From a virus, in IMG/VR virus record IMGVR_UViG_3300045988_056849: DNA of 64,000 nucleotides. One strand, given 5' to 3'. Shown here one piece after another: positions 2,960 through 64,000 of the stretch; within the stretch, counting starts at the first letter, position 1; every line of letters starts with the position of its first letter. The notes beneath the pieces were generated by a model. The model did not search any database. It was given only the letters and a program-made list of their open reading frames with translations, and was not told where the DNA came from. A program made the translations under genes and the position numbers.

Positions 2960-2973
2960 AAAACTAAGATAAT

Positions 2974-13589: not shown

Positions 13590-13591
13590 GT

Positions 13592-14359
13592 ATGAAACCA
13601 TATGGATTTATATATAAATTGACTTATTTGCCTACAAAGAAAATATATGTAGGAAGACATAAGTTGAACAGCTGTAAGAATTATCTTGGTAGCGGTTCAG
13701 AAATTAAAGAAATTCAAAGCCGAGATAAAAAGAGATTACCATTACATTGGAGAAAATTATGGAAAAGACAAGTAATTGATTTAGCATATTCCTTTGAAGA
13801 ATTAAGAAAAAAGGAATATGATTGGATTCAAAAGTTAGATGCTTTGAATCCTTTAATTGGTTACAATATATTAGAAGTTGAAAGGATAGGAGGAGTTTGT
13901 TGGCCGAGTGAAGACCCAAGAGTCAGGGAGAAAATAAGAATAAGTCATCTTGGTGATAAAAATCCCATACATAAGCATATCTTTACAAAAGAAGAAAGAG
14001 AGTTAATGAGAAGAAGGAGACTTGGAACTAAATTAAGCAAAGAAGCGAGATTGAAAGTTTCAAAGGCGAGAAAGGGAATTGTTTTATCAGATGATACCAA
14101 AACTAAACTTTCATTAGCTAATTTGGGTGAAAACAATCCTAATTACGGCAAAAGAGTTGAAGAAACTTCTATGTTTGGTAAACATCATACCGACGAGACT
14201 AAAACGAAAATGTCTCAACGAATGAGCGGAAAGAATAACCCAATGTATGGCGTTACTTCTCCTAATAAGGGCAAGAAAATGTCCGAAGAACAAAAGCGTA
14301 AAATATCTGAATCAAGAAAGAGAGGTATATATGAGAAGAAAACCAAGAACAATTTCTGA
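13592..14359 (+). mobile_element. Free-standing GIY-YIG homing endonuclease gene (HEG-A) with NUMOD3-type repeats
   Basis: 'YGFIYKLTYLPTKKIYVGRH' is a GIY...YVG motif. The C-terminal half has repeated 'G(D/E/K)(K/N)NP(I/N/M)(H/Y)GK' and 'S(E/K)E..(K/L)K(I/V)S' units. It is inserted between the helicase and primase genes. A GTG at 13586 is also possible. Confidence 0.8.
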
Positions 14360-18023: not shown

Positions 18024-18058
18024 AAGGAGAGCGTGTTGAGCGTTCTCCTTTCTTTTTC
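18024..18058 (+). terminator. Rho-independent terminator
   Basis: Stem aaggagagcg (18024-18033) pairs with cgttctcctt (18041-18050, one G-U), followed by tctttttc. Confidence 0.75.
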
Positions 18059-18074
18059 TCCCATAGTTACTAAG
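18058..18074 (+). promoter_or_regulatory. Class II motif copy a: CTCCCATAGTTACTAAG
   Basis: One of four copies of (TTTTT)CTCCCA(T/A)AGTT(A/T)... Each lies immediately 3' of a hairpin and 15-32 nt 5' of a start codon. Confidence 0.45.
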
Positions 18075-18104
18075 GGAGAAGAAACGAAAAGAAAATTTCA
18101 AATA

Positions 18105-19355
18105 ATGATTGATATGAATATTCCGAGTAACAATGTTTGCATTCCTGAGTTGGGAGTAGCAAAAACAGAGACCTTTGCAGCGTTGTACCCTGCTATCAAT
18201 TACTACCTGTTCACCCAGAAGGACTACGAGCCGAGCCGTGACGGAGAAGTTAAGGAGGTGCTTGATTTTAAGACGCAGTTGACCAATCCTTATCGTAGAT
18301 GTGTAGGAGGTTACGAGCGTGATATAAATGTGTTCTTTTTATTGGCTGAAGCGATGTGGATAGCAATGGGAAGAAAAGATGTTCACTTCTTGACTTTGTT
18401 TAATAAGAAGATGGCAGACTTTTCGGATGATGGTGAAACGTTTCACGCTCCTTATGGTTATCGGTTACGTCATTGGGGCATTCGCACCGAAGACAAGTTT
18501 GTAAAAGATAACTTGGACGCAAGTAAGGGGTATGACCAAGTAATTGATGCTATCAAAATCTTATCTGAAAATCCAAACAGCCGTCAGGTAGTTATGGAGA
18601 TTTGGAATCCAAACTTTGACTTGGGATACAAAACCAAAGACATTCCGTGTAACGACATAGTGATGTTGAAGATAAGAGAAGGGAAACTCATCACGACTAT
18701 CGGAAACCGAAGTAATGACCTTCATTGGGGATTGCCGACAAATATCTTCCAATTCAGTTTCTTGACCGAGCTTATGGCGGGTGCGTTGGGCGTAGAACTT
18801 GGAACGCAAACTCATAACTCTCAAAGCCTTCATATCTATGAATGGAACAAGATTGCTAAAACTATGAGCGACTTGTATGCCGAGAAAAGAGGAGGTGGAA
18901 ACGTTATCGGGAATATGTATGAGGATTGCGAAGCCCAAGAACGTAGAATGGATTTCAACTTCAGTCACGAAGTAGCCGTCAACCGTTTCCGTGAGATTGA
19001 ATATAACCTTCAAATCATTATTGATAACCTTATCCGAGTATCGGAGGGAGAAGAGCCGATTGAGGCTGAAATCCAGCAGTTAGCAGACTTTTCTACTTAT
19101 CTGTATAACTCTTACCGACTTCTGAAGATATATTTGGAATACAAGCTGAAAATGACCGTTCTCAAAACTCCTGACGAGAAAGATGTAGCACGTCATACCG
19201 CTATTTCTGAAATCGAAGTCTTGGAAGCTAATATGGAGGATGATAGCGGAACAGGTGCTATGGGCTACAATTGGGATATATCTATGCTTGCTAAGAACTT
19301 CTTTGCCGCAAGGTTATCTAAAAAAGTAGAACATGAATATCTTGGTAAGCTATGA
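18105..19355 (+). CDS. Thymidylate-synthase-family enzyme, divergent and extended (416 aa); candidate dUMP hydroxymethylase or ThyA
   Basis: TS blocks: 'APYGYRLRHWG', 'SRQVVMEIWNP', catalytic Cys in 'DIPCNDIV', 'NRSNDLHWGLPTNIFQFS' (Asn at the pyrimidine-specificity position, as in dUMP-binding enzymes), 'SLHIYEWN'. The ORF-track GTG at 18033 lies inside the terminator, so the first ATG, 18105, is used. The stop overlaps the dnaE start (ATGA). Confidence 0.7.
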   Translation: MIDMNIPSNNVCIPELGVAKTETFAALYPAINYYLFTQKDYEPSRDGEVKEVLDFKTQLTNPYRRCVGGYERDINVFFLLAEAMWIAMGRKDVHFLTLFNKKMADFSDDGETFHAPYGYRLRHWGIRTEDKFVKDNLDASKGYDQVIDAIKILSENPNSRQVVMEIWNPNFDLGYKTKDIPCNDIVMLKIREGKLITTIGNRSNDLHWGLPTNIFQFSFLTELMAGALGVELGTQTHNSQSLHIYEWNKIAKTMSDLYAEKRGGGNVIGNMYEDCEAQERRMDFNFSHEVAVNRFREIEYNLQIIIDNLIRVSEGEEPIEAEIQQLADFSTYLYNSYRLLKIYLEYKLKMTVLKTPDEKDVARHTAISEIEVLEANMEDDSGTGAMGYNWDISMLAKNFFAARLSKKVEHEYLGKL

Positions 19356-22959: not shown

Positions 22960-23613
22960 ATGTTAGCGAAAATTTTCAACGGAGCTTATCTGAAAAGGCT
23001 TGATAACATCAAGCAATGGCAAGAAATGGACGTTTTCAAAGAGGAAAGCGTGAGTCAACATTCCTACAAAGTATCAATCTTTGGAAGGATATTACTTGAA
23101 GACATATTCGGGTTTGATAACGAGGATGCAAAAGTATTGGCGTTCAAACTTGATTGCGTAGATGCGTTTGCGTTCCACGATTGGGATGAAGCGTTGATAC
23201 TCCGAGATATGTCGCATGAAACGAAGTACAACAATTATAACGGTACGGAAATCAGAACGGCTCTCAATAACCTATCAAGGCATAAAGCAATTGAGGAGTT
23301 CGGAGAAGATGACGGAAACAATTGCGGTAATTGGAGCGCAACCGCTAATATGGTTGTTGGTAACATTACACGTTCAGGGGATGATGTTAAAATCTTTTGT
23401 AAACTGGCTGATTGGTTAGCTCTTGCCTTCTATATGAAGAGAGAACGTGAGCTGGGTAACAAGAGCCTAAGTGCCCAATGGGAGCGTGGTAAGGAAGGAC
23501 TGGAACAGGCGGTTACGAATGTAATTGAAATGTTAAATAGAAAGTTTGAAGGTTATTCTTTGAACTTCTCAGAATTAAATAACTTAATCAAAAATGTGTA
23601 TGGCGAACAGTAA
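22960..23613 (+). CDS. yfbR: HD-domain 5'-deoxynucleotidase, YfbR-like
   Basis: Collinear with E. coli YfbR: 'YLKRLDNIKQWQ', 'ESVSQHSYKVS', 'FAFHDWDEALILRDMSHETKY', 'CKLADWLALAFY'. Confidence 0.7.
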   Translation: MLAKIFNGAYLKRLDNIKQWQEMDVFKEESVSQHSYKVSIFGRILLEDIFGFDNEDAKVLAFKLDCVDAFAFHDWDEALILRDMSHETKYNNYNGTEIRTALNNLSRHKAIEEFGEDDGNNCGNWSATANMVVGNITRSGDDVKIFCKLADWLALAFYMKRERELGNKSLSAQWERGKEGLEQAVTNVIEMLNRKFEGYSLNFSELNNLIKNVYGEQ

Positions 23614-27072: not shown

Positions 27073-27762
27073 ATGAAAGAATTGTATGGTATTATCTATT
27101 TGACGACTTGTCTTGTCAATAACAAAGTCTATGTGGGACAAACTATCAATTGGCAGGACAAGTCGTATTTAGGAAGCGGAACTGCCTTTGTAAATGCGTT
27201 GAAAAAGTACGGAAGGAAGAATTTCAAACGAGAGACTTTGAAACTTTGTTATTCTCAGGCTCAATTAGATGCTTGGGAAACGGTTATGGTTAGAAAATAT
27301 GATTCAACAAATCCAGAAAAAGGATATAACATATTGCCAGGAACTGCTAACAATTTTGGACAAATAAATCCAGCAAGACTTCCAGAAGTACAAGAAAAGA
27401 TAAGGAGAAAGAAGGTTGGTAAATATAAGGGCAAAAATTGTTATTGGTATGGTAAAACATTGTCTGAAGAAACAAAGAAGAAACTTTCAGACAAAGCGAA
27501 GAAGCGATTATTAGACCCAAGAAACAATCCGATGTACGGCAGATGTCTTTCTGAAGAAGCTAAACGGAAAATATCAAATTCAAGAAAAGGTAAACCGAGC
27601 CCAAGGGCAGGAGCCGAATTAACAGATGAAACGAAAGAAAAATTGAGAAAAGCTAATATTGGTAAACGTGTTATAAATAACGGAGTTGAAAACAAGGTTA
27701 TTAATGGAAATGATACATTACCGAAAGGATGGAATTATGGTAGATGTAAAAAAGAAAAATAA
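27073..27762 (+). mobile_element. Free-standing GIY-YIG homing endonuclease gene (HEG-B) with NUMOD3-type repeats
   Basis: 'YGIIYLTTCLVNNKVYVGQT', 'KKYGRKNFKRE'. Repeated 'G(K)(N)(N/C)(P/Y)(M/W)YG(K/R)..SEE(T/A)K(K/R)K(L/I)S' units. Inserted between recA and sbcD. Confidence 0.8.
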
Positions 27763-30725: not shown

Positions 30726-31391
30726 ATGAAACCAATAGGATTTGTTTATTTGACTACTAATATTGTAAATGGAAAGATATATGTCGGTCAATTTAAGTTT
30801 AGTAAACATAAATGGTTCAATGCTAATTATGTAGGAAGCGGAACTGTTATTGAACAAGCTATCAAGAAATACGGACGAAAGAATTTCAAACGTAGAATAT
30901 TGAAGCTGTGTTATTCGATAAATCAATTGAATGGTTATGAGACTTATTACACTTTGAAATACAATCCTAAACTTGACCCGAATATCGGATATAATCAGAT
31001 TATTGGGCCAGTTAGGAGAAGCGGAAACAAAAATCCAATGAGTTATCCGAATGTTGTTAAAAAGATAAGTGGGGAAAATCATTACTTGTTTGGTAAGCAT
31101 TGTTCCGAAGAAACTAAAAAGAAATTGTCTGAAAAGATGTCTGGCGAAAACAATCCTTTTTATGGTAAGACTCATCCAAAAGGCAAGATGTCTAAGATAT
31201 TGAAAGAGTATTATTCTACTGAAAAAGGTAAAAAAACAATTAACAAAGTTAAGAATAAATTGAAAGGACGTAAAATGTCTGAAGAACAAAAAGAGAAAAT
31301 AAGACAAGGTAATTTAGGCGTCAAGCGTTCCGAAGAAACAAGAAGAAGGATGTCAGAGTCAAGAAAAGGTATGAAATATAAAAAGAATTAA
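30726..31391 (+). mobile_element. Free-standing GIY-YIG homing endonuclease gene (HEG-C) with NUMOD3-type repeats
   Basis: 'IGFVYLTTNIVNGKIYVGQ', 'KKYGRKNFKRR'. Repeated 'GE(N)(H/N)(Y/P)(L/F)(F/Y)GK' units. Inserted between sbcC and ruvC. Confidence 0.8.
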
Positions 31392-35917: not shown

Positions 35918-36346
35918 ATGTCACGGAAATTTACACCCGAAAGGATTGACGAATTGAAACCAGACGAGATATTTGTCTTTGGTTCCAATATGAATGGGGC
36001 TCATATGGGAGGAGCTGCCCGCATAGCCTACGAGAATTTTGAAGCAACTTGGGGCGAAAGCGAAGGATTGACTGGACGTTCTTATGCTATTCCGACTTTG
36101 GATGAGAACATAGAGAAAGTATCGGAGAGTGCATTGGAAGCGAGTATTGACAAGTTCATAGATTTTGTATTGAATAATCAACAATTGACGTTCTATCTGA
36201 CAAAGATAGGTTGCGGAATTGCTGGTTGGGATATAGAGGACGTGAAAAGGATATTTTGGAAGGTTATCGAAGATTACAAGCCTGACCCAGAGTGTTCTGT
36301 TCCTGCTAATTTAATAATCCCAAAAGAGTTCTATGATGGAAAATAA
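35918..36346 (+). CDS. Conserved phage protein with macro/LOG-like pattern (A1S_2505-type non-structural protein)
   Basis: 'IFVFGSNMNGAHMGGAARIA...GRSYAIPT...LTKIGCGIAGW' is a widespread phage family pattern. The ORF-track GTG at 35840 lies in the terminator, so ATG 35918 (MSRKFTPE...) is used. Confidence 0.4.
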   Translation: MSRKFTPERIDELKPDEIFVFGSNMNGAHMGGAARIAYENFEATWGESEGLTGRSYAIPTLDENIEKVSESALEASIDKFIDFVLNNQQLTFYLTKIGCGIAGWDIEDVKRIFWKVIEDYKPDPECSVPANLIIPKEFYDGK

Positions 36347-37247
36347 AGTTCCGAGAAAGCTCAAGAAAGAGTTGCGCAAGGTTGATTGTTTAGAGACTTC
36401 TCAGCCTTTTATCAAAATGGAACCAAATCCATTTAGTCCTTCCAAAATGATGTTTACTCAAAATTCGAGAGTAAAACTCAAAGAAGGTGTCAAGATAAAT
36501 AAATGGACAAAACGTCTTGTTCGCAATATACTCCGAGAAGTAAGGAGAAATCATAAACGCAACACGGAGCTTGCTATGAAGCGTCAAATGGAATGGATAC
36601 ATAAAGGTATCAATCCAATAAATAGTTATGAAGAAATGTTGCGTTCAAAGTCTCAAGAAGAGTTCCGAAGAGAGTATATGAATGAACCTATATTACCAAG
36701 AGACTTGGATGGGTTAAGACCTTCTTGCGTAATAATAGACGATATGGGAGAACAATGGCAACCTGCTAATCGTAGAGAGGTTGAGGAGTTTATGCGTAGA
36801 TGTAACATTTGGCCTCACGTTCAGGAGCCTGACGGAAACGGAGTTGCTATTTTGAAACTTCCTTCCTTATCGAAGGAGAAACTTGAGGAGTTCAAAACCG
36901 AATGGGAGAAATGGTCAAGGAGTGCTCAACCGATAACAGTAATTGACCCTGAAGCAAGCATAGAGTTCATTCCAGCGAAAAGACCTCACCGACTTCATAA
37001 TCATCCAAGAATGGAAGTTGAACTTGGTTTGAACGAAAGAGAAGTAATTGTTGACCAAGAGTTCGTACACTTGTTCAGAAACGCTTACCCAGTACGAGGT
37101 AGGAGAAGAGAAGTTGGCGTTGACCATTTCATAGTTAGCAAGAAAGAATTTTTGGAACGGATGGAAGAGTCAGGGGGGGCAACAGATGAACCTGACGACC
37201 TTCTCAGACCGAGCTACGAAAGAAAACGCATTAAAAGACGTTTATAA
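36333..37247 (+). CDS. Hypothetical protein (304 aa)
   Basis: Long ORF, basic N-terminus. No motif. Confidence 0.5.
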   Translation: MMENKVPRKLKKELRKVDCLETSQPFIKMEPNPFSPSKMMFTQNSRVKLKEGVKINKWTKRLVRNILREVRRNHKRNTELAMKRQMEWIHKGINPINSYEEMLRSKSQEEFRREYMNEPILPRDLDGLRPSCVIIDDMGEQWQPANRREVEEFMRRCNIWPHVQEPDGNGVAILKLPSLSKEKLEEFKTEWEKWSRSAQPITVIDPEASIEFIPAKRPHRLHNHPRMEVELGLNEREVIVDQEFVHLFRNAYPVRGRRREVGVDHFIVSKKEFLERMEESGGATDEPDDLLRPSYERKRIKRRL

Positions 37248-37455
37248 CGTGCTTGTAAACTCATATAGGAGCGTTGCGGGCGGTTTTCTTTATCAACCGT
37301 TAGACTTATTATCAAAACCGAATACAACGTGGCATACGTGCCTACAAAATGGGAAACTGAAATGTGTAATGATTCACAAAGAAACCCACGTTGGTAAGAA
37401 GGTTATAATGTGCGGTTGCGACGGTACGAGGGAGGGGAAAGAAAGCGTTGCTTGA
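37186..37455 (+). CDS. Hypothetical protein, possible N-terminal half of a split gene
   Basis: 89 aa. It overlaps the upstream gene by 62 nt and ends 8 nt inside the next ORF, which lacks an ATG start. Confidence 0.35.
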   Translation: MNLTTFSDRATKENALKDVYNVLVNSYRSVAGGFLYQPLDLLSKPNTTWHTCLQNGKLKCVMIHKETHVGKKVIMCGCDGTREGKESVA

Positions 37456-37696
37456 AATTCTCTTGAACTGTTTAACAGATATAAAAGAGCATTACTGGTG
37501 TGAAGCGAGCGATGCAATTGAGCATTGGTTAGTTAAGCACGGCATGGAAGCTCACCCGAACGAATGGTGTGCGGAATTGTTAGAGAAGGAAGGAGAAAGG
37601 ATTGAGTATTGCGATGATGGAATACATTACATTCGTCATATAAACGGAGTACCAAAGGTAAAAGCCATTTATGGCAATTTAACAAATAATAATTAA
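37448..37696 (+). CDS. Hypothetical protein, possible C-terminal half of a split gene (TTG start only)
   Basis: 82 aa in the +1 frame relative to 37186-37455. No ATG near its 5' end. Confidence 0.3.
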   Translation: MLEILLNCLTDIKEHYWCEASDAIEHWLVKHGMEAHPNEWCAELLEKEGERIEYCDDGIHYIRHINGVPKVKAIYGNLTNNN

Positions 37697-37702
37697 CAAT
37701 TC

Positions 37703-37924
37703 ATGGTAAAATTAAAAGCAAAAAGAGCCGTAACGGTTACGATGACCGTAAACGGAGAAGCGTCAACCGCTGAGAGTTTGAAACTCAAGAAAGGTGAAAC
37801 AATCGAAGGAGACTTCCAGTCAGAAAACCTTGCAAACGGCAATCCTACTTTGGTAGTGAACCGTGACGGAGGTTCAAGAATCATTGAGTACTTGGAAGCC
37901 GACTTTGAAGAAGTAGCCGAGTAA
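37703..37924 (+). CDS. Hypothetical protein (73 aa)
   Basis: ATG ORF followed by a strong terminator. Confidence 0.45.
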   Translation: MVKLKAKRAVTVTMTVNGEASTAESLKLKKGETIEGDFQSENLANGNPTLVVNRDGGSRIIEYLEADFEEVAE

Positions 37925-37947
37925 AAACAAAGTACATCTTGTAGAAT

Positions 37948-37979
37948 AAGGAGCGATGGAAGTTGCTCCTTTTCTTTTA
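37948..37979 (+). terminator. Rho-independent terminator
   Basis: aaggagc (37948-37954) pairs with gctcctt (37965-37971), followed by ttcttttat. Confidence 0.75.
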
Positions 37980-37994
37980 TAAACAAAGAAGGAT

Positions 37995-38276
37995 ATGAAG
38001 CGACTTGATAAAGAAAGTATATTGAATGGTGAACCGCTGTTTCCGTTATCCGAGCCGATTGTTGAAAGAAGCAAACCAAAAGTAAAGATTAAGCAAGTAC
38101 CAACTACTTGTCATACAGGCAAGCTATCTTATCCAACGGCAGAAGATGCGGAAAGAGCCACAAAGTTATTAAAGAAGAAACATAAAGGAGGAACGAAATG
38201 GTACAAGTGCGAATATTGCTGGCAATACCATTTGACTTCGATTAAGAAACAACGTAAAGGAAAGATGAGGTTTTGA
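37995..38276 (+). CDS. Small basic protein with C-terminal C-x2-C...H motif (93 aa)
   Basis: 'KWYKCEYCWQYHLTS'. Function unknown. Confidence 0.45.
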   Translation: MKRLDKESILNGEPLFPLSEPIVERSKPKVKIKQVPTTCHTGKLSYPTAEDAERATKLLKKKHKGGTKWYKCEYCWQYHLTSIKKQRKGKMRF

Positions 38277-38277
38277 T

Positions 38278-38544
38278 ATGCAACAAATGGTAATACCGTC
38301 AGGACAATTTGTAACAATGCCGAAGCGAGGGTTGGAAAGAGTAAAAGAATTGGTAAGCAATATGAATGATTTTGAATTCAAGCAAAATACTTCTGCTAAT
38401 TATCTTGCTTACCAAGAGCTAAGACGTCAATTGTCGGCTGAATTTAACTACCTTCTTTTGTCAGACGAAGAAGAATGGAAAGAGGCAAACCGATATATTG
38501 AGGATAATCTGAAAATGTTAGGTGCGGAGGGTAAAATATATTGA
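38278..38544 (+). CDS. Hypothetical protein (88 aa)
   Basis: ATG 2 nt after the upstream stop. Confidence 0.45.
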   Translation: MQQMVIPSGQFVTMPKRGLERVKELVSNMNDFEFKQNTSANYLAYQELRRQLSAEFNYLLLSDEEEWKEANRYIEDNLKMLGAEGKIY

Positions 38545-38545
38545 T

Positions 38546-38842
38546 ATGGACAATAGCAAAGAATATCTGCTTTGTGCAGCAATTCGTAGAGTAGAGCCGA
38601 GAGATTGCCCGAAAGTATATTGGGAACAATTCCACGACATCTACAAAATAGAATTGGGTTGGAGACATCCAGATATAATGCACCGATTTGGGAAGGAAGT
38701 ATCACGCAACCTGAATGACCAAGGCTTCTACACTTCCAAAGGACGTTTCGTGACAAGAGAGGAAGGATTGGAGATAGCAAGAGCCGCAGGTCAGGTTGAT
38801 AAGATAATTGGAGGAGTATTAACAAGTGAAGATTTATATTGA
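38546..38842 (+). CDS. Conserved phage protein (98 aa), function unknown
   Basis: ATG 38546 (MDNSKEY...) follows the upstream stop. The pattern 'CAAIRR...GWRHPDIM...QGFYTSKGRFVTREEGLEIARAAGQV' recurs in many phage hypothetical proteins. Confidence 0.45.
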   Translation: MDNSKEYLLCAAIRRVEPRDCPKVYWEQFHDIYKIELGWRHPDIMHRFGKEVSRNLNDQGFYTSKGRFVTREEGLEIARAAGQVDKIIGGVLTSEDLY

Positions 38843-39318
38843 TGCCTAAGATAATAATTTGTAGAGGTCTGCCAGGGTCAGGTAAAACTACTTGGGCGAA
38901 AGATTATGTTCAACGCAATATCTTCAATCCTGCGGTAAGAGTAAACCGAGACGACATAAGGAAGATGCTTGCTATAACATATAATACTTTGACCGAAGAG
39001 TTTGTGAAGGGAATGGAGCGAGATATGATAACAAACGCTCTAAACTTTGGATTTGACGTTGTAGTTGATGATACTAACATATATACTTCGGCAGCAGAGC
39101 TTATAGTAGCAGCCATAGAACAATCCGATTGGGAAACGGTAAAAGTTGAGGTCAAAAGTTTCTTTGATACTCCAATTGAAACTTGCGAAGATAGACAAAT
39201 GGAACGAAGTCCTCAAGAACGAGTACCAGACTATCGAATCAGGCAACTCATGGATTATTATGAGAAGTACGGAAAGAGATTTGAAAACTATATAAAAAGA
39301 AGTGAGTGTGTAATATGA
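38839..39318 (+). CDS. P-loop kinase of the T4 polynucleotide-kinase (Pnk kinase-domain) type; candidate 5-hmdU DNA kinase
   Basis: 'GLPGSGKTTWAKDY', 'VNRDDIRKML', 'VVVDDTN' are collinear with T4 Pnk 'GCPGSGKSTWA', 'INRDDYR', 'ISDTN'. No phosphatase domain. 159 aa. Confidence 0.65.
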   Translation: MMPKIIICRGLPGSGKTTWAKDYVQRNIFNPAVRVNRDDIRKMLAITYNTLTEEFVKGMERDMITNALNFGFDVVVDDTNIYTSAAELIVAAIEQSDWETVKVEVKSFFDTPIETCEDRQMERSPQERVPDYRIRQLMDYYEKYGKRFENYIKRSECVI

Positions 39319-39521
39319 AAGCAACCGATAAACAAAAACAGATTTGCGACCTTGTTATTCAGCAAGCGAGCTTTTGGAAGAGTTCTAATGATATAGATAG
39401 TCCAACCCATTATTGCGATAATTCCGAGAGCGTGAGAAGTCTTGAGCTATCAGAAGAAGATGAAGAGGACTTGACAAACTTTCTTGATAACTTGTTAAAT
39501 TTTGTAAAGGAAAAGAAATGA
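39315..39521 (+). CDS. Hypothetical acidic protein (68 aa)
   Basis: ATGA overlap with the kinase stop. Confidence 0.4.
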   Translation: MKATDKQKQICDLVIQQASFWKSSNDIDSPTHYCDNSESVRSLELSEEDEEDLTNFLDNLLNFVKEKK

Positions 39522-39796
39522 CACTGAAGGAGCTTGAAGATAATTTATTGCTAAGAGACGAGAATGTAGAATTGAAAGAAGATACGTTTTTGTCTTTTCG
39601 CATATTTATATATTCGCTAATGGGTAAGAGAAAGATATTGACATTTATGGATAAACAAAAAGAGTTCCGAGTGACCAAAATATCCGACTACCCAGACCAA
39701 GGCAAACAATACCCTATTTGTGTATTAAGAGTAGAAAGATTGCGCTTGAAGAAAAAAGTAGTGAAAGCGAAGAGAAGCGCAGCCGATAAGACTTGA
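39518..39796 (+). CDS. Hypothetical protein (92 aa)
   Basis: ATGA overlap with the upstream ORF. Confidence 0.4.
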   Translation: MTLKELEDNLLLRDENVELKEDTFLSFRIFIYSLMGKRKILTFMDKQKEFRVTKISDYPDQGKQYPICVLRVERLRLKKKVVKAKRSAADKT

Positions 39797-39841
39797 TACG
39801 CAAATATAAGTATAGGTAATGAATTGTAATCGCAAATAGAA

Positions 39842-41074
39842 ATGGATAAGAGTAAACAAATAACTATTCCAGAGGACGTAGTAAACCCAACGGAGTATAA
39901 GAAGATGCTTGCCTTGGAGAAACATCCAATAATTCGCAACACTATCTATATAAGTAGTGAAGGAGACGAAATCAATATTGGAATGTTACCTCATAGGTTG
40001 GCAAAACATATAGAACATCTCAGTAGCAAAGAGCAAGAAGACATATTGGAACTCAAGAGAAAGTATAATCAGCTCCGAGCTAAGATAAGCACCGCAAAGT
40101 CTCTTGCCTTTGGGAGAGCAGGAAGGTATGGAGGTAAGAGCAAGGATGAATTAGCCGTATATAAACTCAGTCCGTTTGAGGAGGATATTATTGAGCTACT
40201 TGGGCGTATGTTTACCGTAGCAGAGGTTGTAAAGATAATGGGCGAGGATAACGGAGTAATTGTCAACGAGGACGATGTCAAGGGAATACTGAAGAAGCAT
40301 ATCGTTGAGATAGAGCGAAAGCGTGAGGAGTTCCGAAACCGAGTAGCAGATGTCCGACTGTATAACAAAAGACCGAGACTTGAGGAGCTTGCTTGGATGT
40401 ATTCCAAAATGAAGAATAAGTATATTGCTCTCAATTCGATTGACTCTTACAACGCAATGCTTCGTACTTTGGAGCAGATACGCAAGGAAGCAGAAGGAGA
40501 CATACTCAATATAAACGGAGTAGTTGATGTCAATATCGAAGTAACAATACAAAATCATATTCAGAAGGAAATACTCAAAACGATAAACCTCAAAGAGATT
40601 ATCTTGGGGCGTGTCGCAGCACGTATGAATTATGACCCGAAGAAATTGGTTGCTGGTTTACATAATAGCTACTATGCGAAGTTTGTCGATATATCGGGAG
40701 ACTATGACGAGAATGCTGAAATGAGCTATCCTTCCAACTCAGCTTATGACTTTGCTATGATAGAGCGTACCGCTGGACGAGAGGTAATGGATGTCAAGGC
40801 AGAAGATGTTACCGAAACGGAACACTCCTCAGCTACAAATGTCAAAGACTTGTTCTTGTCTAAGATACGCAAGCAAAAGCAAGATATGGAAGCACGTCAG
40901 GCAGGATGGGACGCAGAAGCCGAAAGGAAAAGACCTGTTGCGGAGGATGAAACTCCAATAGACCGTAGTACGAACGGACGAGGTAAAGACAAGATACCAC
41001 CGAGCAAGACGAAGGCTGGGCAGCGCAAGAATAAAGATAAGCCGTATGGTAAAGAGATAAAGACGAAGAAATAA
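39842..41074 (+). CDS. HTH-containing protein (410 aa), possible DNA-binding / small-terminase-like
   Basis: 'SPFEEDIIELLGRMFTVAEVVKIMGEDNGV' looks like an HTH. Basic C-terminal tail. Assignment is speculative. Confidence 0.3.
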   Translation: MDKSKQITIPEDVVNPTEYKKMLALEKHPIIRNTIYISSEGDEINIGMLPHRLAKHIEHLSSKEQEDILELKRKYNQLRAKISTAKSLAFGRAGRYGGKSKDELAVYKLSPFEEDIIELLGRMFTVAEVVKIMGEDNGVIVNEDDVKGILKKHIVEIERKREEFRNRVADVRLYNKRPRLEELAWMYSKMKNKYIALNSIDSYNAMLRTLEQIRKEAEGDILNINGVVDVNIEVTIQNHIQKEILKTINLKEIILGRVAARMNYDPKKLVAGLHNSYYAKFVDISGDYDENAEMSYPSNSAYDFAMIERTAGREVMDVKAEDVTETEHSSATNVKDLFLSKIRKQKQDMEARQAGWDAEAERKRPVAEDETPIDRSTNGRGKDKIPPSKTKAGQRKNKDKPYGKEIKTKK

Positions 41075-51043: not shown

Positions 51044-52762
51044 ATGATAGCAACAGTACCAGACATAATTGCGAAAGCTCCTGTGACCTTGTTACAGTCT
51101 CCAATGCATCAATTGGAATGTCTCAATATAGTAGATGAGATAATTGACGGCATGGACGACAAGGGAATATTGGAGCTCATGCAAGGTTCAGGAGGAGACT
51201 TGGATTGGGTATTAGATAACTTGATGAAAGATACTTATCAGGTTATGTACACGGGTGACCCAAACATTGACTTCGCTCCGAAATATACAGATAGACTTTC
51301 ACAGTCTATCGAAGAAACATTGCGGACACGCAACCTTACTTACTTTATTACTTCGGTAATGCCCGACTTTCAATTGTCTTGGCATCATTTGGAATGGGGA
51401 GACTTGGTACACCGATACAATAAATTATGTATCAACGCTGCCCGTGACCATGGTAAGTCGTATTATTTCTCAAATGCCTATTGTGCTTGGAAGCTCTATT
51501 CCTACGCAAAGCCTAAATCAAGTGTATTCTCTGCCCGACCTACGAAGAGCAATTCCAATCGTGGGTATTTGTTTAGCTTCTCACTCCAGCAGTCCGTTGA
51601 CCTTATGGAGATTTTGAAAGGAACGATTGAGAGCAACGACATTCTCAAAGACAGATTGTATCCTGATTCAAGAAATAGCGGAGCGTGGGCGAGTACGAAC
51701 ATAGTATGTAGGAACGGAGCGAGGTTGACGTGTAAGGGATTTGGGTCATCAGTACGTGGTGCTCACCCATACTGGATAGTAGTAGATGATGGACTGAAAG
51801 ATAACGTCATATACAGTGCCCTACAAAGGCAGAAAAGTATAGACTATTTCCACGCTGTTATTATGAACATGCTCGTGCCAGGAGGACAAATCATTGTCGT
51901 TGGTACTCCGTTCCACGCTTCGGATTTATACGGAGACTTGAGAAGCAAGAGCATATTTGCTACACATAATAAGAAGGGTTGGTTTGTAATTGAATATCCT
52001 GCTATCTTCCCTGACGGACGTATATTGTGGCCACAGCGTTGGAGCTTCTTCGATTTGATGGACAAGAAAGCAACGCAAGGTAACATCATCTTCAGTCGTG
52101 AGAACTTATGCCGACCTATTACCAATGAGGCTTCTATATTCCCATTGAAAGTTTTGGAACGCTCTTTGGTACGTATGGAGAACTACACGTTGGTACGCAA
52201 TCGGGATGACTTCCCAATCAAGTTTAACAAAGTTGTTACAGGCTGTGACTTCGCAATATCTGCTAACGTAGGAAGCGACTACACCGTGTTCACGACTTGG
52301 GGAGTAGATGACGAAACAGGAGAGCGTTGGTTGCTAAACTTTTACCGAGATAAGGGCAAGACCTTCCACGAACAGATGCAAATATTGAAGGGAATCAACG
52401 CAAGATTCAGACCTGATAGCATGGTGATGGAGCAAAACACATTCCAACAGATATTCGTTCAGGAAAGCGATAAACAGGGGTTGCCAGTTATAGGACATAC
52501 CACTGGAATAGATAAGTACGACTTGAAAACAGGCTGGCCAGGATTGGCTATTGATTTTGAGAGAGGTAAGATACATATACCAACTGGAGATAAGTATTCA
52601 CAAGATGTAAAAGATTTGATTTTCTCTGACCTTGGTTCGGTAGCCTTTACGGATAAAGGACTTGAGTCAGTAGGAGAACATGACGACATCTCATCCAGCT
52701 TCTGGCTTGCTAAGTTAGGTGCTAATCTTATCACGACTGGTTTCAAATATACTTTCCTTTAA
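51044..52762 (+). CDS. terL: Terminase large subunit
   Basis: 'AARDHGKSYYFS' (Walker A-like), 'YWIVVDDGL' (Walker B), 'VVGTPFH'. C-terminal RNase H-like nuclease 'VTGCDFAIS...DYTVFTTWG'. Confidence 0.75.
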   Translation: MIATVPDIIAKAPVTLLQSPMHQLECLNIVDEIIDGMDDKGILELMQGSGGDLDWVLDNLMKDTYQVMYTGDPNIDFAPKYTDRLSQSIEETLRTRNLTYFITSVMPDFQLSWHHLEWGDLVHRYNKLCINAARDHGKSYYFSNAYCAWKLYSYAKPKSSVFSARPTKSNSNRGYLFSFSLQQSVDLMEILKGTIESNDILKDRLYPDSRNSGAWASTNIVCRNGARLTCKGFGSSVRGAHPYWIVVDDGLKDNVIYSALQRQKSIDYFHAVIMNMLVPGGQIIVVGTPFHASDLYGDLRSKSIFATHNKKGWFVIEYPAIFPDGRILWPQRWSFFDLMDKKATQGNIIFSRENLCRPITNEASIFPLKVLERSLVRMENYTLVRNRDDFPIKFNKVVTGCDFAISANVGSDYTVFTTWGVDDETGERWLLNFYRDKGKTFHEQMQILKGINARFRPDSMVMEQNTFQQIFVQESDKQGLPVIGHTTGIDKYDLKTGWPGLAIDFERGKIHIPTGDKYSQDVKDLIFSDLGSVAFTDKGLESVGEHDDISSSFWLAKLGANLITTGFKYTFL

Positions 52763-52807: not shown

Positions 52808-53257
52808 ATGAAACAAAGAAAAGTAAACATTATCATCAAAGGCTACGGCAAAAAGCCTTTGTATGCGACTTCACATTCAGCAGGAGCTGACTTATATTCA
52901 GCCAACGCTTCGGATATTGTTCTTCAGCCGATGGAACGCAAAATCATTCCCACGGGTTTGTTTTTGGAACTTCCTATTGACGCTGAAGCTCAAATAAGAC
53001 CGAGAAGCGGATTGAGCGCAAAGAAAGGAATTGTAGCAATTCTTGGAACCATTGATGCCGATTATCAAGGAGAAGTTGGTATCATAGTAATTAATCTAAG
53101 CGATGAAGCGTTTGTAATCGAAAGAGGAGAACGACTTGCTCAGATGGTTCTGAATGGAGAAGGAGGATTGTTCCAAGGAGACTGGGTTGAGGTTGAAGAG
53201 TTTTCCAGAGAGAGCGAACGAGGAGCAGGTGGATTTGGACATACAGGTACAAAGTAA
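52808..53257 (+). CDS. dut: Trimeric dUTPase
   Basis: 'SAGADLYS', 'IRPRSGL', 'GTIDADYQGEV', C-terminal 'RGAGGFGHTG'. Confidence 0.9.
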   Translation: MKQRKVNIIIKGYGKKPLYATSHSAGADLYSANASDIVLQPMERKIIPTGLFLELPIDAEAQIRPRSGLSAKKGIVAILGTIDADYQGEVGIIVINLSDEAFVIERGERLAQMVLNGEGGLFQGDWVEVEEFSRESERGAGGFGHTGTK

Positions 53258-60815: not shown

Positions 60816-61481
60816 ATGGACGAAATTAGCAAAGCGATTCAAGGAGCGAGAGCTGCTCAGCGAGGACGCATCATGGGAAGTTTCTCAAACTTCCAAGAAG
60901 TAACAGCGGATGACGATGCTATCCGCAAAGGTGAAGAAGTATCGGAGGAAAATCCATTTGACAAAGCTGCCGAAGAAGCGGATGTGGAGAAGTCCGATGT
61001 AATAGATGCTTTATCCTATCAGGGAGACATTAAAGTGTCTAAGACTGGTAAGGAGATTAAAGACCAAGTGGACACCGTTCTGCTGCCTGCTATGACGGCA
61101 GACTTGGCTGTAAAGGAGGCTGAAGCTGATAAGAAGTTGAAAGACTGCGGAACAGCTCCGACCAAAGACCCAGACAAATGGTGGACGGATGGTATCAAGA
61201 TGGACTGCGGTTACAAAATCTATGATTGGGAAGAAACCTATGTTCCTAACAATGACGGAGGAAAGATGATGAGTTCACTTTCGGCTTCGGATGCAGAGGA
61301 CAAGAAAGGTAACGTGCCCGAAAATCAAGAGCAAGCAACATGCCGTAGAGAGTACAACGATATTGTACGAGCTATCTGCAATATCAAAGTTGATATCAAG
61401 GCGTGTGAGATTTTGAAAACTCTTGCTGACAATAAAGAGTTTGAACTTTCACCACGTCAGGTATTAGCATTAAGGTTTTAA
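60816..61481 (+). CDS. Hypothetical acidic protein (221 aa)
   Basis: ATG ORF followed by a terminator. No motif. Confidence 0.5.
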   Translation: MDEISKAIQGARAAQRGRIMGSFSNFQEVTADDDAIRKGEEVSEENPFDKAAEEADVEKSDVIDALSYQGDIKVSKTGKEIKDQVDTVLLPAMTADLAVKEAEADKKLKDCGTAPTKDPDKWWTDGIKMDCGYKIYDWEETYVPNNDGGKMMSSLSASDAEDKKGNVPENQEQATCRREYNDIVRAICNIKVDIKACEILKTLADNKEFELSPRQVLALRF

Positions 61482-61504
61482 CGTGGGGAGGTGTACTGCG
61501 ACTG

Positions 61505-61547
61505 GAGAGGGAATTGAGTTGTGAAACTTGGTTCCCTTTCATTTTTC
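61505..61547 (+). terminator. Rho-independent terminator with apical GNRA-type loop
   Basis: gagagggaa (61505-61513) pairs with ttccctttc (61532-61540, one G-U). Inner stem agtt-gtga-aact. Followed by atttttc. Confidence 0.7.
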
Positions 61548-61563
61548 TCCCATAGTTATTAAG
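61547..61563 (+). promoter_or_regulatory. Class II motif copy d: CTCCCATAGTTATTAAG
   Basis: Identical to copy a over tttttctcccatagtta. 15 nt before the ATG at 61578. Confidence 0.45.
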
Positions 61564-61577
61564 TAAAATGTTACACT

Positions 61578-61919
61578 ATGCCAATAGATAATGATAATCC
61601 ACAAGTATGGAGCTACTTTAAGCGAGGAGATATTGTCAAGGATTCAGAAGATAGTGTTTGGGGCAATACTAAATTTGAAATCACTGGGTTTCATGGTAAT
61701 TGGTACTGTCCTTTATTATCAACGAATATATGCGGCAAGTTCTATCCCAGCGGCAATCCTCAGCGTTGTAATTTAGGAGTGAGAGAAGCAAGGTTAATTA
61801 ACGCAGCTCACCGACCTTTCAAAAGAATGAAAAAAGTTCCTTTGCTGAAACTAATGGCGAAAGGAAACGTGGAAGCGAGGAGAGAATTTGTTATGAGAGT
61901 AAATACAAAAACTTTATAA
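61578..61919 (+). CDS. Hypothetical protein (113 aa)
   Basis: ATG ORF at the head of the operon containing the aGPT-Pplase-like gene. Confidence 0.45.
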   Translation: MPIDNDNPQVWSYFKRGDIVKDSEDSVWGNTKFEITGFHGNWYCPLLSTNICGKFYPSGNPQRCNLGVREARLINAAHRPFKRMKKVPLLKLMAKGNVEARREFVMRVNTKTL

Positions 61920-61922
61920 TTT

Positions 61923-63077
61923 ATGTTTGAACAAGCAGCATGGTATGATAAGCTCCCAAACGAGAGCTTGGAAGTGTACGAGCCTCATTTGAGATTATTC
62001 TTTGAGACTATGTACGAGCGACAAATGATTTGGAAACGTAGGTTCATAGACAAGAAGGAAAGACCTTGGACAGACAACAAGATATTCCAAGAGTCAAAAT
62101 TCACGAACGTGTACCGAGAACTTGACCGAAACAGTCAATGGCAAATCAAAAACATTCTTCTTGATGAAAGTCTTTCTTTGAAGAACTTGGTTTGGAAGAT
62201 GATGGTTTTCCGTTTCTTCAACAATCCTGAAACATTCGAGTTTGAACCGAAGGGAAAGAGCGTTCAACCCAGTCTATTCGGAGCACCTATCAAATCAGGA
62301 CTTAAACAAGCTCAATCTATGGACGAGCTTATTTCAGCCAAGAAATGGAAGAATGGTATTCCCGATTGGGAGGAGTATGACGAAGATGAATTCAGTCGTT
62401 TCATTGCGGGCGTTCGGAGTTCGGGTCAAAATCCATATACAACCGCTTACTTGATAAACTCTCAAGCAACACCTGGTCAGCCGAGAGATTATTGTTACAC
62501 AAGGGTTGTAATACCTCACCTGCATAAGAACGTAGGAAAGCTCATTGCTACGGTGATGAAAGCTAAAAGACCAGAAGATATTATTGAGTATCTGAAAACC
62601 TTCCCTGCGGTGGCGGATTTTATTGCTCATGAGTTCTATCAGGACTTCACATATATACCGAGATATACCAACCGTAAATTTATGAAGTTTGACCAAAACG
62701 ACTTCACGAACGTTGGGCCAGGTTGTAGTATAGGCATACGCCTTATTTATCCGAGCTTGAAAACTGTAAGAGAGCAAAAACAAGCTATCTACTGGTTGAA
62801 GGAAGCAGCAACCGAATGGCTTGAGAAAATTGGTAAAGAGAAGGGTGAGCCGTTTCCGTATCTTGATTGGGACAAAGAGAGTGGAGAATATTACACTTTC
62901 AGTCGCCAAGAGTATGAGGAAGATGAATTGAACCGTGATGTGCTATATACTGAAATAACCCTTCACCAGATTGAGATGTGGTTATGCGAGTTCCAGAAAT
63001 ATTGGAAGATGATTATTGGAGAAGGCAAACAGCGCAGCAAATTTCAACCGAGAAGCAAATCAATTATTTCAAAATAA
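61923..63077 (+). CDS. Alpha-glutamyl/putrescinyl-thymine pyrophosphorylase (aGPT-Pplase)-like DNA base hypermodification protein
   Basis: The N-terminal block 'ERQMIWKRRFIDKKERPWTDNKIFQESKFTNVYRELDRNSQW' matches the W-T-D...F-x-N-V-Y-R-E-x-D-R signature I associate with this family. 384 aa. This is recognition from memory, not a search. Confidence 0.5.
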   Translation: MFEQAAWYDKLPNESLEVYEPHLRLFFETMYERQMIWKRRFIDKKERPWTDNKIFQESKFTNVYRELDRNSQWQIKNILLDESLSLKNLVWKMMVFRFFNNPETFEFEPKGKSVQPSLFGAPIKSGLKQAQSMDELISAKKWKNGIPDWEEYDEDEFSRFIAGVRSSGQNPYTTAYLINSQATPGQPRDYCYTRVVIPHLHKNVGKLIATVMKAKRPEDIIEYLKTFPAVADFIAHEFYQDFTYIPRYTNRKFMKFDQNDFTNVGPGCSIGIRLIYPSLKTVREQKQAIYWLKEAATEWLEKIGKEKGEPFPYLDWDKESGEYYTFSRQEYEEDELNRDVLYTEITLHQIEMWLCEFQKYWKMIIGEGKQRSKFQPRSKSIISK

Positions 63078-63079
63078 CA

Positions 63080-64000
63080 ATGGACAAGAAATTAACAGAA
63101 TTTTTTGAGAAGAAAGAATTTGAGGTTGTAGAAAAGAAAACTACAACCCAAGTTCTTATTCAGAACTTACTTGCGTTCAGTGTACGTGAGAAGAAGGGAG
63201 GGTTGTTTGATATTTCAATCAACATAGTAAAGGACGAAGAAGAAAAGGAGAAGCTGAGAAAGCGTATCAACCGTGAAGGCTCTTCGGAGAACGAAGGTTG
63301 GAACATTGACTTTGAGAAAACTCCGATACTTCACAACGTAACGATAAGCCAATTTGAAGCCTTCTGTAAGCAAACTAAGCTCATTGCTCAGGTGAAACGT
63401 CTTTCGGAGTTCCGAGAGGTACAGAGCGACTTCACGTTGGCAGTAGCAGAAAAGGACGGCAAAACTTTGAAGTGGCGTTCAAACCTTCCTACGGAGAAGC
63501 ATATTGTTGATGCTGTATTCAAAGGCAGCGAGTACACTCACCGTTCAGTAGGTTTGGGCGGTTTAACTCTTACCAAGAAAGACGTTGTATTGGACTTGGG
63601 TGGTAATATCGGAGCTTTCACTTGCGACATCTTCGATAAAGTCAAAAAGGTCATTGTATTTGAACCTGAAGATGTGAACTATGAATTTCTATCTACGAAT
63701 ATAGAAGACAACGGAGCAAAGAACGTAATTGCCCACAAACAAGCCGTAGTTGGTAATGACGATAAGGTGCGTGACTTCTATCTGGGTAAAGCTCCGTATT
63801 ATTATTCATTCTTGGTAAAACATAACCGCAAGCGAGTTCCTGTTGAGTGCGTGAATATCAACGAGGTTATGAAGAAGTACAACCCTACCAAGATGAAGGT
63901 TGATATTGAAGGCTCTGAATGGGAAGTTCTTATCAACTGCACGGACTTCGGGAATGTTGACCAGATAATCTTTGAGTACAACTTCGATATGAATATGGAC
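63080..64000 (+). CDS. FkbM-family SAM-dependent methyltransferase with ~150-aa N-terminal extension, 3'-truncated by window edge
   Basis: Not in the ORF track because it runs off the window. ATG 63080 is followed by 307 open codons to 64000. SAM motif I 'VVLDLGGNIGAFT', 'VIVFEPE', and the FkbM hallmark 'KMKVDIEGSEWEVL'. Confidence 0.7.
   Translation, partial: MDKKLTEFFEKKEFEVVEKKTTTQVLIQNLLAFSVREKKGGLFDISINIVKDEEEKEKLRKRINREGSSENEGWNIDFEKTPILHNVTISQFEAFCKQTKLIAQVKRLSEFREVQSDFTLAVAEKDGKTLKWRSNLPTEKHIVDAVFKGSEYTHRSVGLGGLTLTKKDVVLDLGGNIGAFTCDIFDKVKKVIVFEPEDVNYEFLSTNIEDNGAKNVIAHKQAVVGNDDKVRDFYLGKAPYYYSFLVKHNRKRVPVECVNINEVMKKYNPTKMKVDIEGSEWEVLINCTDFGNVDQIIFEYNFDMNMD

Follow-up and report, generated by a model that had tools for sequence, protein, structure and literature searches.

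The 64,000-nt stretch of viral DNA analysed here (IMG/VR record IMGVR_UViG_3300045988_056849; hereafter the window) ends in a pair of adjacent genes, one encoding a 384-amino-acid (aa) protein of the Pfam family PF18723 and the other an S-adenosylmethionine (SAM)-dependent methyltransferase of the FkbM family, and a role of this pair in thymidine hypermodification of phage DNA was evaluated. The first open reading frame (ORF) starts with ATG on the plus strand and carries PWTDNKIFQESKFTNVYRELDRNSQW. Its TAA stop codon lies at 63075-63077, and after a gap of 2 nt the ATG at 63080 opens a second frame, which is free of stop codons up to base 64000 and includes VLDLGGNIGAFT and KVDIEGSEWEVL. A model-made note on the same DNA, the first-pass annotation, had quoted these peptides from an ORF and from a further frame running off the window, and all of them were present as described.

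The window's last 4351 bases were 100% identical to a public 98.8-kb ENA metagenome contig (L002; window coordinate = L002 coordinate + 59598), which therefore revealed the region beyond base 64000. In L002, the methyltransferase gene is completed and is followed by three ORFs of 110, 204 and 174 aa (p110, p204 and p174), none of which matched Pfam or NCBIfam, then by a second hairpin of 15 pairs with a T-run and by the portal gene (Table 1). Because a hairpin with a T-run was found at both ends, the terminator-bounded operon that had been proposed to begin at 61578 and to continue past the window is real; it comprises six genes and no further recognisable enzyme. Beyond base 64000, where the first-pass annotation had suggested inspection for pyridoxal phosphate (PLP), radical-SAM or glycosyltransferase partners, only the three small ORFs, the hairpin and the portal gene were seen. 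The first gene of the unit, p113, gave no match in Pfam, PHROG or NCBIfam; in 138 of 154 related loci, tblastn placed it beside the PF18723 gene. A near-identity DNA search with 61400-64000 against 50,697 phage records (megablast) gave no match; the phage is without a close relative in culture, the best protein identity being 26%.

Profile searches, also proposed in the first-pass annotation, assigned both ORFs to families. PF18723 was the sole Pfam match of the 384-aa protein (E 8.3e-49; 166.9 bits against a cut-off of 25), an insert dividing the match in two, and PHROG 2396 matched its residues 20-377 (E 5.6e-43). With phmmer, proteins of YungSlug (E 1.5e-29), Cba120 (orf156, E 1.3e-21) and M6 (gp55, E 7.3e-13) were retrieved, and the PF18723 profile itself matched M6 gp55 at E 8e-56 and Cba120 orf156, the orthologue of ViI gp160, at E 1.6e-83. 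Also members are PhiW-14 gp72 and, within gp186, the kinase fusion protein of SP10, the C-terminal half (Lee 2018). The family, with 2321 cluster representatives at E <= 1e-3, is at present named HMUDK_hel, '5-hmdU DNA kinase, helical domain', in Pfam, 5-hmdU being 5-hydroxymethyl-2'-deoxyuridine. From its memberships, from a BFVD entry that still bears the older name and from the naming in earlier Pfam releases, we take PF18723 to be the former clade 1 of the aGPT-Pplase superfamily. PF18723 forms a paralogue class without an established role, and the proven group transferases belong to PF18724 (PMC8989533). The earlier description of the gene as aGPT-Pplase-like thus held for the superfamily, by way of PF18723, and not for the class of proven transferases; the PF18724 profile gave no match to the 384-aa protein at E up to 0.1.

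The AlphaFold2 model of the 384-aa protein, built from 64 homologues, was all-helical (pLDDT, the predicted local distance difference test, 90.7). Its best Foldseek match in BFVD was the SP10 5-hmdU DNA kinase gp186 (F8WQ30; E 1e-13, TMq, a template-modelling (TM) score, 0.66), with further matches to proteins of phiRSL1 and PhiW-14 (C9DG43), and PF18724-domain proteins appeared in the same list only at E 6.6e-3 and worse. Against the PDB, Foldseek returned nothing at E < 1, with the transferase PUGT (8z2m) in 38th place (TM 0.22-0.28), and a sequence search returned nothing at E up to 10. The loop 108-145 is a disordered insert of about 35 residues, modelled with low confidence and variable in length among homologues. 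In the 64-sequence alignment, R33, N62, D68, F233, G267, C355 and K359 were invariant, and W49, Y64, R65, R97, N100, G265, P266, E351, E356 and Y360 were conserved in at least 90% of the sequences. A GPG hairpin occupies residues 265-267, and the C-terminal motif IEMWLCEFQKY holds Cys355, Glu351 and Glu356. The E-x3-C-x-[FW]-x-K spacing around Cys355 is the same as that around the catalytic Cys247 of M6 gp51 (IEMWLCEFQKY vs VETVLCKWKSH), in which the Cys and a nearby Glu are essential (Lee 2021; PMC8989533). On the basis of this shared Glu-x3-Cys motif, the 384-aa protein is read as a putative enzyme using C6-thiolate chemistry.

The second gene was matched by the NCBIfam model TIGR01444 (fkbM_fam; E 4.9e-19, 69.2 bits against a cut-off of 37.7) and by PF05050, the latter at E 3e-7 for the truncated ORF and at E 5.6e-9 (36.8 bits against 22.7) for the full protein. 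Residues 1-155 form an alpha/beta domain without a family match and residues 160-349 the FkbM catalytic domain, in which D172, G174, N176, G178 and F180 of the SAM motif I (VLDLGGNIGAF) and E195 and P196 of the acidic motif II (FEPE) were invariant in 48 homologues. The AlphaFold2 model of an 89%-identical homologue (pLDDT 92.6) had its best PDB fold matches among the nucleic-acid methyltransferases RlmCD, RumA, TrmA, TYW2 and Trm5 (E 2e-7 to 4e-6, TM 0.3-0.5), a likeness that is suggestive, not decisive. Since the FkbM genes of phages HTVC112P and MED4-117 are unlinked to thymidylate-synthase (TS) or Pplase genes and neighbour ParB or DNA methylase instead, membership in the FkbM family alone is uninformative on DNA.

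The order 5'-3' exonuclease, p221, p113, PF18723, p110, portal was kept in approximately 150 related viral contig loci (39-93% identity), and the PF18723 gene is therefore a core gene of this phage lineage. In the minimal genomes, it is followed by p110 and the portal gene with nothing between, and in others the position behind it is a slot with variable content. This slot was occupied by a gene for a TET-associated glycosyltransferase (TAGT; PF20691, E 3.4e-10) and then by an FkbM methyltransferase gene in three loci (L027-29), by a radical-SAM/SPASM gene and then a TAGT-like gene in another (L057), and elsewhere also by head-fibre-like and unassigned ORFs. TAGT genes were located within 8 kb of PF18723 in many loci.

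FkbM methyltransferases of 29-58% identity stood beside DNA-hypermodification genes in at least five architectures. A 45%-identical orthologue adjoins the PF18723 gene in L089, overlapping its end by 4 nt; a 52%-identical one lies between a radical-SAM/SPASM gene and a TAGT fusion protein in L091, a 113-kb phage; and a form consisting of the catalytic domain only stands beside a glycosyltransferase, near a dUTPase and a TS homologue, in L093. As the clearest case, positions 1311-4596 of L159 (IMGVR_UViG_3300033066_000822) encode a P-loop kinase with a weak PF18748 match (E 0.0047), a PF18724 protein (26.9 bits against 26.2), an FkbM methyltransferase (E 2.8e-9), a PF18723 protein and the portal in this order. 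The PF18723 and portal proteins of L159 were 46% and 57% identical to those of the window phage, and this cassette is a candidate for a complete hypermodification cluster that includes a methyltransferase. In addition, a methyltransferase of a different family follows PF18723 in L166, and a SAM-synthetase domain occurs nearby in L163. The first-pass annotation was aware of no characterised thymidine hypermodification pathway that pairs a Pplase with an FkbM methyltransferase, and a full-text literature search joining FkbM with hypermodification found no paper; as to the pairing itself, the methyltransferase proved to be no obligate partner. The first-pass idea is partly rescued by the recurrence of FkbM-type methyltransferases inside the DNA-hypermodification clusters of relatives.

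As an observation in its own right, the body of the PF18723 gene was approximately 90% identical to that of a close relative (L167) over aligned L002 positions 2614-3295, and from L002 position 3357 on, including the last 120 nt or so of the gene, the identity was 98.7%. Upstream, the p113 and p221 proteins were 100% identical in L007, which is from the same contig as L167. This step in identity inside the PF18723 gene suggests an allele exchange within the gene.

A supplier of 5-hmdU is predicted in the window. The divergent TS homologue reported in the first-pass annotation matched the Pfam TS family and lay far under every NCBIfam thymidylate-synthase cut-off, and its best matches among the 50,697 phage records were the hydroxymethylases of phages with 5-hmdU, namely SPO1 (gp29), SP82G, SP8 and SP10, together with M6 gp58; it was 36-47% identical to SPO1 gp29, the SP10 dUMP hydroxymethylase and M6 gp58 (E ~1e-44). 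It shares the motifs IPCN and NRSNDLHWGLPTN with M6 gp58. In the motif NRSND...(T/A)N, which it has in common with the hydroxymethylases named, the Asn is of the uracil type and presumably stands at the position of the Asp in cytosine-specific homologues. The protein thus groups with known dUMP hydroxymethylases and is the predicted supplier of 5-hydroxymethyl-dUMP (5-hmdUMP). SPO1, which has no PPlase genes, stops at 5-hmdU (Lee 2018). The dUTPase and the YfbR-like nucleotidase that had been listed alongside were likewise real. The genes for the TS homologue, the DnaE polymerase and the YfbR-like HD nucleotidase follow one another in this order, and in M6 the HD hydrolase gp59 adjoins the TS homologue gp58; by this analogy, a pool-editing role of the nucleotidase is plausible. 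Directly upstream of the TS homologue, a 466-aa ORF (16598-17998) gave no Pfam or PHROG match.

Table 1. Features of the PF18723-methyltransferase locus and of associated genes (window coordinates unless L002 is indicated)
Feature	Position	Strand	Remarks
Terminator-like hairpin, 16 pairs and T-run	61505-61540	+	Ends the upstream unit and marks the start of the six-gene unit; L002 1907-1942
p113, small Cys-containing protein	61578-61919	+	First gene of the unit (ATG 61578), directly upstream of the PF18723 gene
PF18723 protein, 384 aa	61923-63077	+	Pfam profile match; core gene of the phage lineage
Two-domain FkbM-family SAM methyltransferase	63080-64000	+	Accessory gene; cut by the window end (307 of 349 codons)
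Complete FkbM methyltransferase, 349 aa	L002 3482-4531	+	Continuation beyond the window, read from L002
Portal gene	L002 6163-7896		Follows the second hairpin, downstream of the six-gene unit
Thymidylate-synthase homologue, predicted dUMP hydroxymethylase	18033-19355 (alternative ATG 18105)	+	Pfam TS, E 9.3e-25
YfbR-like HD 5'-deoxynucleotidase	22960-23613	+	PF12917, E 6.1e-11; phrog_7076
Polynucleotide-kinase-like P-loop kinase	38839-39318	+	AAA_33, E 2e-18; phrog_505 polynucleotide kinase, E 3.5e-28
dUTPase	52808-53257	+	PF00692, E 3.2e-28

The other enzymes of the known pathways were searched for by several means. A Pfam and PHROG sweep of about 45 window ORFs revealed no PF18748 kinase, no glycosyltransferase, no PLP or radical-SAM enzyme, and no kinase besides that at 38839-39318. 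Queries with M6 gp51 and the L159 PF18724 protein gave no match in the window, the L159 and M6 kinases retrieved nothing convincing there, and phmmer searches with TAGT, radical-SAM, glycosyltransferase, L159 kinase and L159 PF18724 sequences gave no match among the ORFs of the window, L002 and L167. With M6 gp51 as tblastn query, PF18724 appeared absent from about 160 related loci, and a later Pfam scan found one PF18724 gene, that of L159. The first-pass annotation had seen the full logic of a hypermodification pathway in this window; with neither a PF18724 transferase nor a PF18748 kinase in it, that claim failed, and the complete canonical scheme is not supported.

Taken together, these data speak for a modification of 5-hmdU after replication in this lineage, in which the PF18723 protein would be the conserved DNA-acting enzyme and the FkbM, TAGT and radical-SAM proteins would be interchangeable tailoring modules. 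For the window phage we favour, at about even chances, a form of thymidine hypermodification that does without the kinase and includes tailoring by a methyltransferase. In the first step, as homology suggests, the TS-like hydroxymethylase would make 5-hmdUMP, and the phage would place 5-hmdU into its DNA. In the second, to which the conserved residues and the family context point, the 384-aa PF18723 protein would act on 5-hmdU after replication as a DNA-glycosylase-like base-flipping enzyme: Cys355, with Glu351 four residues upstream, would attack C6 and so activate the C5 substituent, as in the PF18724 transferases, and the enzyme would operate with neither a dedicated PF18748 kinase nor a PF18724 partner. 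Activation of 5-hmdU by a route other than phosphorylation by such a kinase might proceed by direct dehydration, through a host kinase or through a gene in the remaining part of the genome. In the third step, suggested by gene context, the adjacent FkbM methyltransferase would be an optional enzyme that uses SAM to tailor the same DNA modification, the candidate acceptors being the 5-hydroxymethyl oxygen, a group installed by the PF18723 protein, or a sugar from the lineage's glycosyltransferases; the product would be a methylated thymidine derivative new to the literature. The more far-reaching proposal, that FkbM-type enzymes represent an unrecognised tailoring class for hypermodified phage pyrimidines and that the PF18723 enzyme, kinase-free, builds a methylated thymidine derivative such as 5-methoxymethyl-dU or a methylated glycosyl or amino adduct, is put forward tentatively, as something we would sooner not expect to hold in full.

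Several points weigh against this reading. Known FkbM enzymes O-methylate small molecules and sugars and are not known to act on DNA. Among the 77 evaluable relatives with a PF18723 gene, the methyltransferase was found in 20 and was absent from 57, among them L005 and L006, whose PF18723 genes are the most similar of all (93%), so that it is not needed for PF18723 function. The slot of one relative (L067) holds an ordinary Dam-type methylase, and the adjacency of PF18723 and methyltransferase genes could stem from a hot spot at which anti-restriction genes gather in general. As to the PF18723 protein itself, the relation between clades 1 and 2 was weak in Foldseek (E 6.6e-3) as well as in hhalign, which placed a clade-1 alignment against M6 gp51 in a 17-column match at the Cys motif with E 0.3, and homology between the two clades is therefore not claimed from these data. 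The literature assigns no activity to any PF18723 protein: M6 gp55 is dispensable for glycinylation in vitro, and a need for ViI gp160 in the synthesis of 5-(2-aminoethoxy)methyl-dU (5-NeOmdU) was never demonstrated (PMC8989533; Lee 2018). Finally, since no PF18748 kinase or PF18724 transferase was found in the window, L002 or L167, the known activation step is left without a candidate, and about 25 kb of the genome lies outside the sequence examined.

A second putative modification island bears on a different possibility. It lies about 8 kb past the window end, as read from L167 (9971-13072) in relatives 98.7% identical to L002, and consists, within head-morphogenesis genes, of p320, whose motif THPYCRC looks to us presumably MuF-like, p225 and a 489-aa weakly GT-B-like protein (GT489). 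The product could be a glycosylated 5-hmdU akin to base J, whose sugar would be attached by GT489 and p225 acting jointly (in relatives, by TAGT) and would be O-methylated by the FkbM enzyme, with the PF18723 protein in a separate or auxiliary role. We regard such a glycosylation pathway as unlikely, yet deserving of consideration: p225 and GT489 are kept just beyond L002 in nearly all relatives, some of which insert a radical-SAM/SPASM gene before them, and L091 has a fusion of p225 to a TAGT domain, with the FkbM methyltransferase gene located in the p225 island. The many TAGT genes near PF18723 and the three architectures in which the methyltransferase stands beside a TAGT or another glycosyltransferase also fit, and relatives of FkbM are typically O-methyltransferases of sugars or polyketides. 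GT489, however, remained sub-threshold against glycosyltransferase profiles (E 7.5e-4; 19.5 bits vs 26.4) and, located as it is among head-morphogenesis genes, could glycosylate another target; p225 matched no profile, and PDB sequence searches with p225 and GT489 gave noise only. In L159, the methyltransferase is flanked by PF18724 and PF18723 and no glycosyltransferase is visible, and glycosylation would leave the universal conservation of PF18723 unexplained. A reading of p225 as an LmbE-like deacetylase had rested on a 'PHxDD' motif and was rejected as unsupported.

The patchy distribution of the methyltransferase, the unrelated cargo of the slot (Dam-type, head-fibre-like and unassigned ORFs) and the FkbM genes of other phages that stand beside ParB or DNA methylase, with neither TS nor Pplase, would also be expected if the two genes were unrelated neighbours, the methyltransferase being a mobile accessory gene in a permissive slot that acts on a non-DNA target (a glycan, small molecule, protein or RNA) and only the PF18723 gene being concerned with DNA. 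We consider this improbable, given the recurrence of the methyltransferase by DNA-hypermodification genes in its various architectures, the spacing of the two genes, resembling that of translationally coupled ones both here and in L089, and the modelled likeness of its fold to nucleic-acid methyltransferases.

In the route proposed by the first-pass annotation, the kinase at 38839-39318 would phosphorylate 5-hmdU in DNA, the 384-aa protein would exchange the phosphate for an amine or amino acid, and the FkbM enzyme would methylate that group. The pathways of M6, ViI and PaMx11 are known to follow this order (PMC8989533), and the kinase, as a P-loop protein, falls within the broad polynucleotide-kinase/AAA_33 kind and has a faint match to M6 gp54 (E 0.0026). 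It gave no PF18748 match, whereas M6 gp54 matches PF18748 at E 7.7e-18, and its nearest relatives are annotated as polynucleotide kinases. At the syntenic place, it was present in 3 of 32 related loci and absent from 29, and it was missing from genomes 97-99% identical around it that carry the PF18723 gene, one of which (contig 057909) carries the methyltransferase gene as well. Because the kinase is not of the PF18748 type and occurs in so few loci, it is a doubtful member of the system and not credible as a conserved one; as the proven transferases, moreover, are PF18724 and not PF18723 proteins, we see little chance for this route. The region 36300-39850 is hypervariable in general, the kinase and neighbouring small ORFs coming and going among genomes otherwise 90-99% identical. 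Least probable is that the PF18723 protein is a non-enzymatic 'helical domain' that binds DNA or flips bases on behalf of other enzymes, as its fusion to a kinase in SP10 (Lee 2018), its Pfam name and its dispensability in M6 in vitro (PMC8989533) might suggest, since Cys355 and Lys359 are invariant and Glu351, Glu356 and Tyr360 nearly so at the position of the PF18724 catalytic motif, and no kinase partner was found in the part of the genome examined.

The window appears to be part of a phage genome of approximately 100 kb. Its DnaE polymerase had its nearest counterpart in Chryseobacterium phage MA9V-3 and the next ones in Cellulophaga, Tenacibaculum and Bacteroides phages. Its portal likewise came nearest to that of MA9V-3, with SPO1-like Herelleviridae and Bacteroides phages ranking next; the host is therefore most likely a member of the Bacteroidota. 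The source is probably the human gut, as the contig sample names resemble those of human-gut cohort studies. SPO1-like Herelleviridae thus supplied both the best cultured-phage matches of the TS homologue and, after one Chryseobacterium phage, the next-best of the portal, which hints at a distant common ancestry of the 5-hmdU module with SPO1-type phages. Elsewhere in the window, three GIY-YIG/NUMOD3 homing-endonuclease-like ORFs (13586-14359, 27073-27762 and 30726-31391) are interspersed with DnaB, primase, RecA, Mre11/Rad50-like and UvrD-like genes. Some 13 kb upstream of the portal gene, genes of nucleotide metabolism (dUTPase, ferritin-like and ribonucleotide-reductase-like) surround a terminase-large-subunit-like ORF (51044-52762), which matched Terminase_6C weakly (E 0.0016), and a 1376-aa ORF (5345-9475) gave no Pfam match.

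Hypermodified thymidine stops restriction enzymes, and such modifications have new DNA chemistry and new enzymes to offer; all solved pathways use a PF18748 kinase and a PF18724 transferase. The present lineage, represented by hundreds of metagenomic contigs, retains PF18723 as its only paralogue alongside the hydroxymethylase and swaps methyltransferase, TAGT and radical-SAM genes alongside, and thereby constitutes a natural experiment for PF18723 function and for methylation as a tailoring step. If the more far-reaching proposal is true, a first function would be assigned to the 'clade 1' paralogue. Virome analyses by sequencing, restriction or nanopore would be biased by modified T in gut phages that are abundant. 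The system is predicted from sequence only; it makes the orphan PF18723 family tractable and includes a candidate for a tailoring chemistry that is new.

Finally, the system was compared with those already characterised. In full-text searches, PF18723 was met only as a listed paralogue and no functional work on it was found; neither methyltransferases nor clade 1 figure in the 2026 diamine-transferase paper, and a pairing of TS with PPlase has already been noted in pelagiphages. With M6 gp55, ViI gp160 (Cba120 orf156), PhiW-14 gp72 and the C-terminal half of SP10 gp186, the window protein has the Pfam family, the predicted fold and the motifs FTNVYRELDR, GPG and LCE(F/Y)xKY in common; like the phages of this group, the window phage has a dUMP-hydroxymethylase-like TS homologue. 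The window protein is, however, only 24-26% identical to the PF18723 members of the model phages, and differs from them in its disordered insert and in having a methyltransferase gene next to its own. Moreover, in the four model phages PF18723 is accompanied by a PF18748 kinase and a PF18724 paralogue (Lee 2018), neither of which was found here.

The proven PF18724 transferases, namely M6 gp51, ViI gp247, PaMx11 gp46 (PUGT, PDB 8z2m) and SH-Ab 15599 DADT (the 2026 diamine transferase), are related to the 384-aa protein at the level of the superfamily and have in common with it a helical glycosylase-like fold and a Glu-x3-Cys at the same C-terminal helix, with weak fold matches and no profile or sequence match between them. 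The proven enzymes require 5-phosphomethyl-dU (5-PmdU) provided by the PF18748 kinase (PMC8989533). The TS homologue shares its catalytic and Asn motifs and a C-terminal extension with SPO1 gp29, the SP10 dUMP hydroxymethylase and M6 gp58; those enzymes belong to phages of a different host phylum, and the activity of the window homologue is predicted. Known tailoring is performed by PaMx11 gp47 and gp48, a flavin adenine dinucleotide (FAD) lyase and an acetyltransferase, and by M6 gp52 and gp53, a PLP and a radical-SAM enzyme (PMC8989533), and a methyltransferase step is not described in the literature on the known pathways (PMC8989533; 2026 diamine-transferase paper). As in PaMx11 and M6, variable genes that would diversify the final base adjoin the core genes; unlike in those phages, the variable genes here and in relatives encode FkbM methyltransferase, TAGT and radical-SAM/SPASM proteins. 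With respect to TAGT systems, T4 glucosylation and base J, the relatives place TAGT beside PF18723 and methyltransferase genes, which points to a glycosylated hydroxymethyl pyrimidine; unlike the TAGT systems, the window holds no TAGT, and the hydroxymethyl group would come from the TS-like enzyme rather than from TET.

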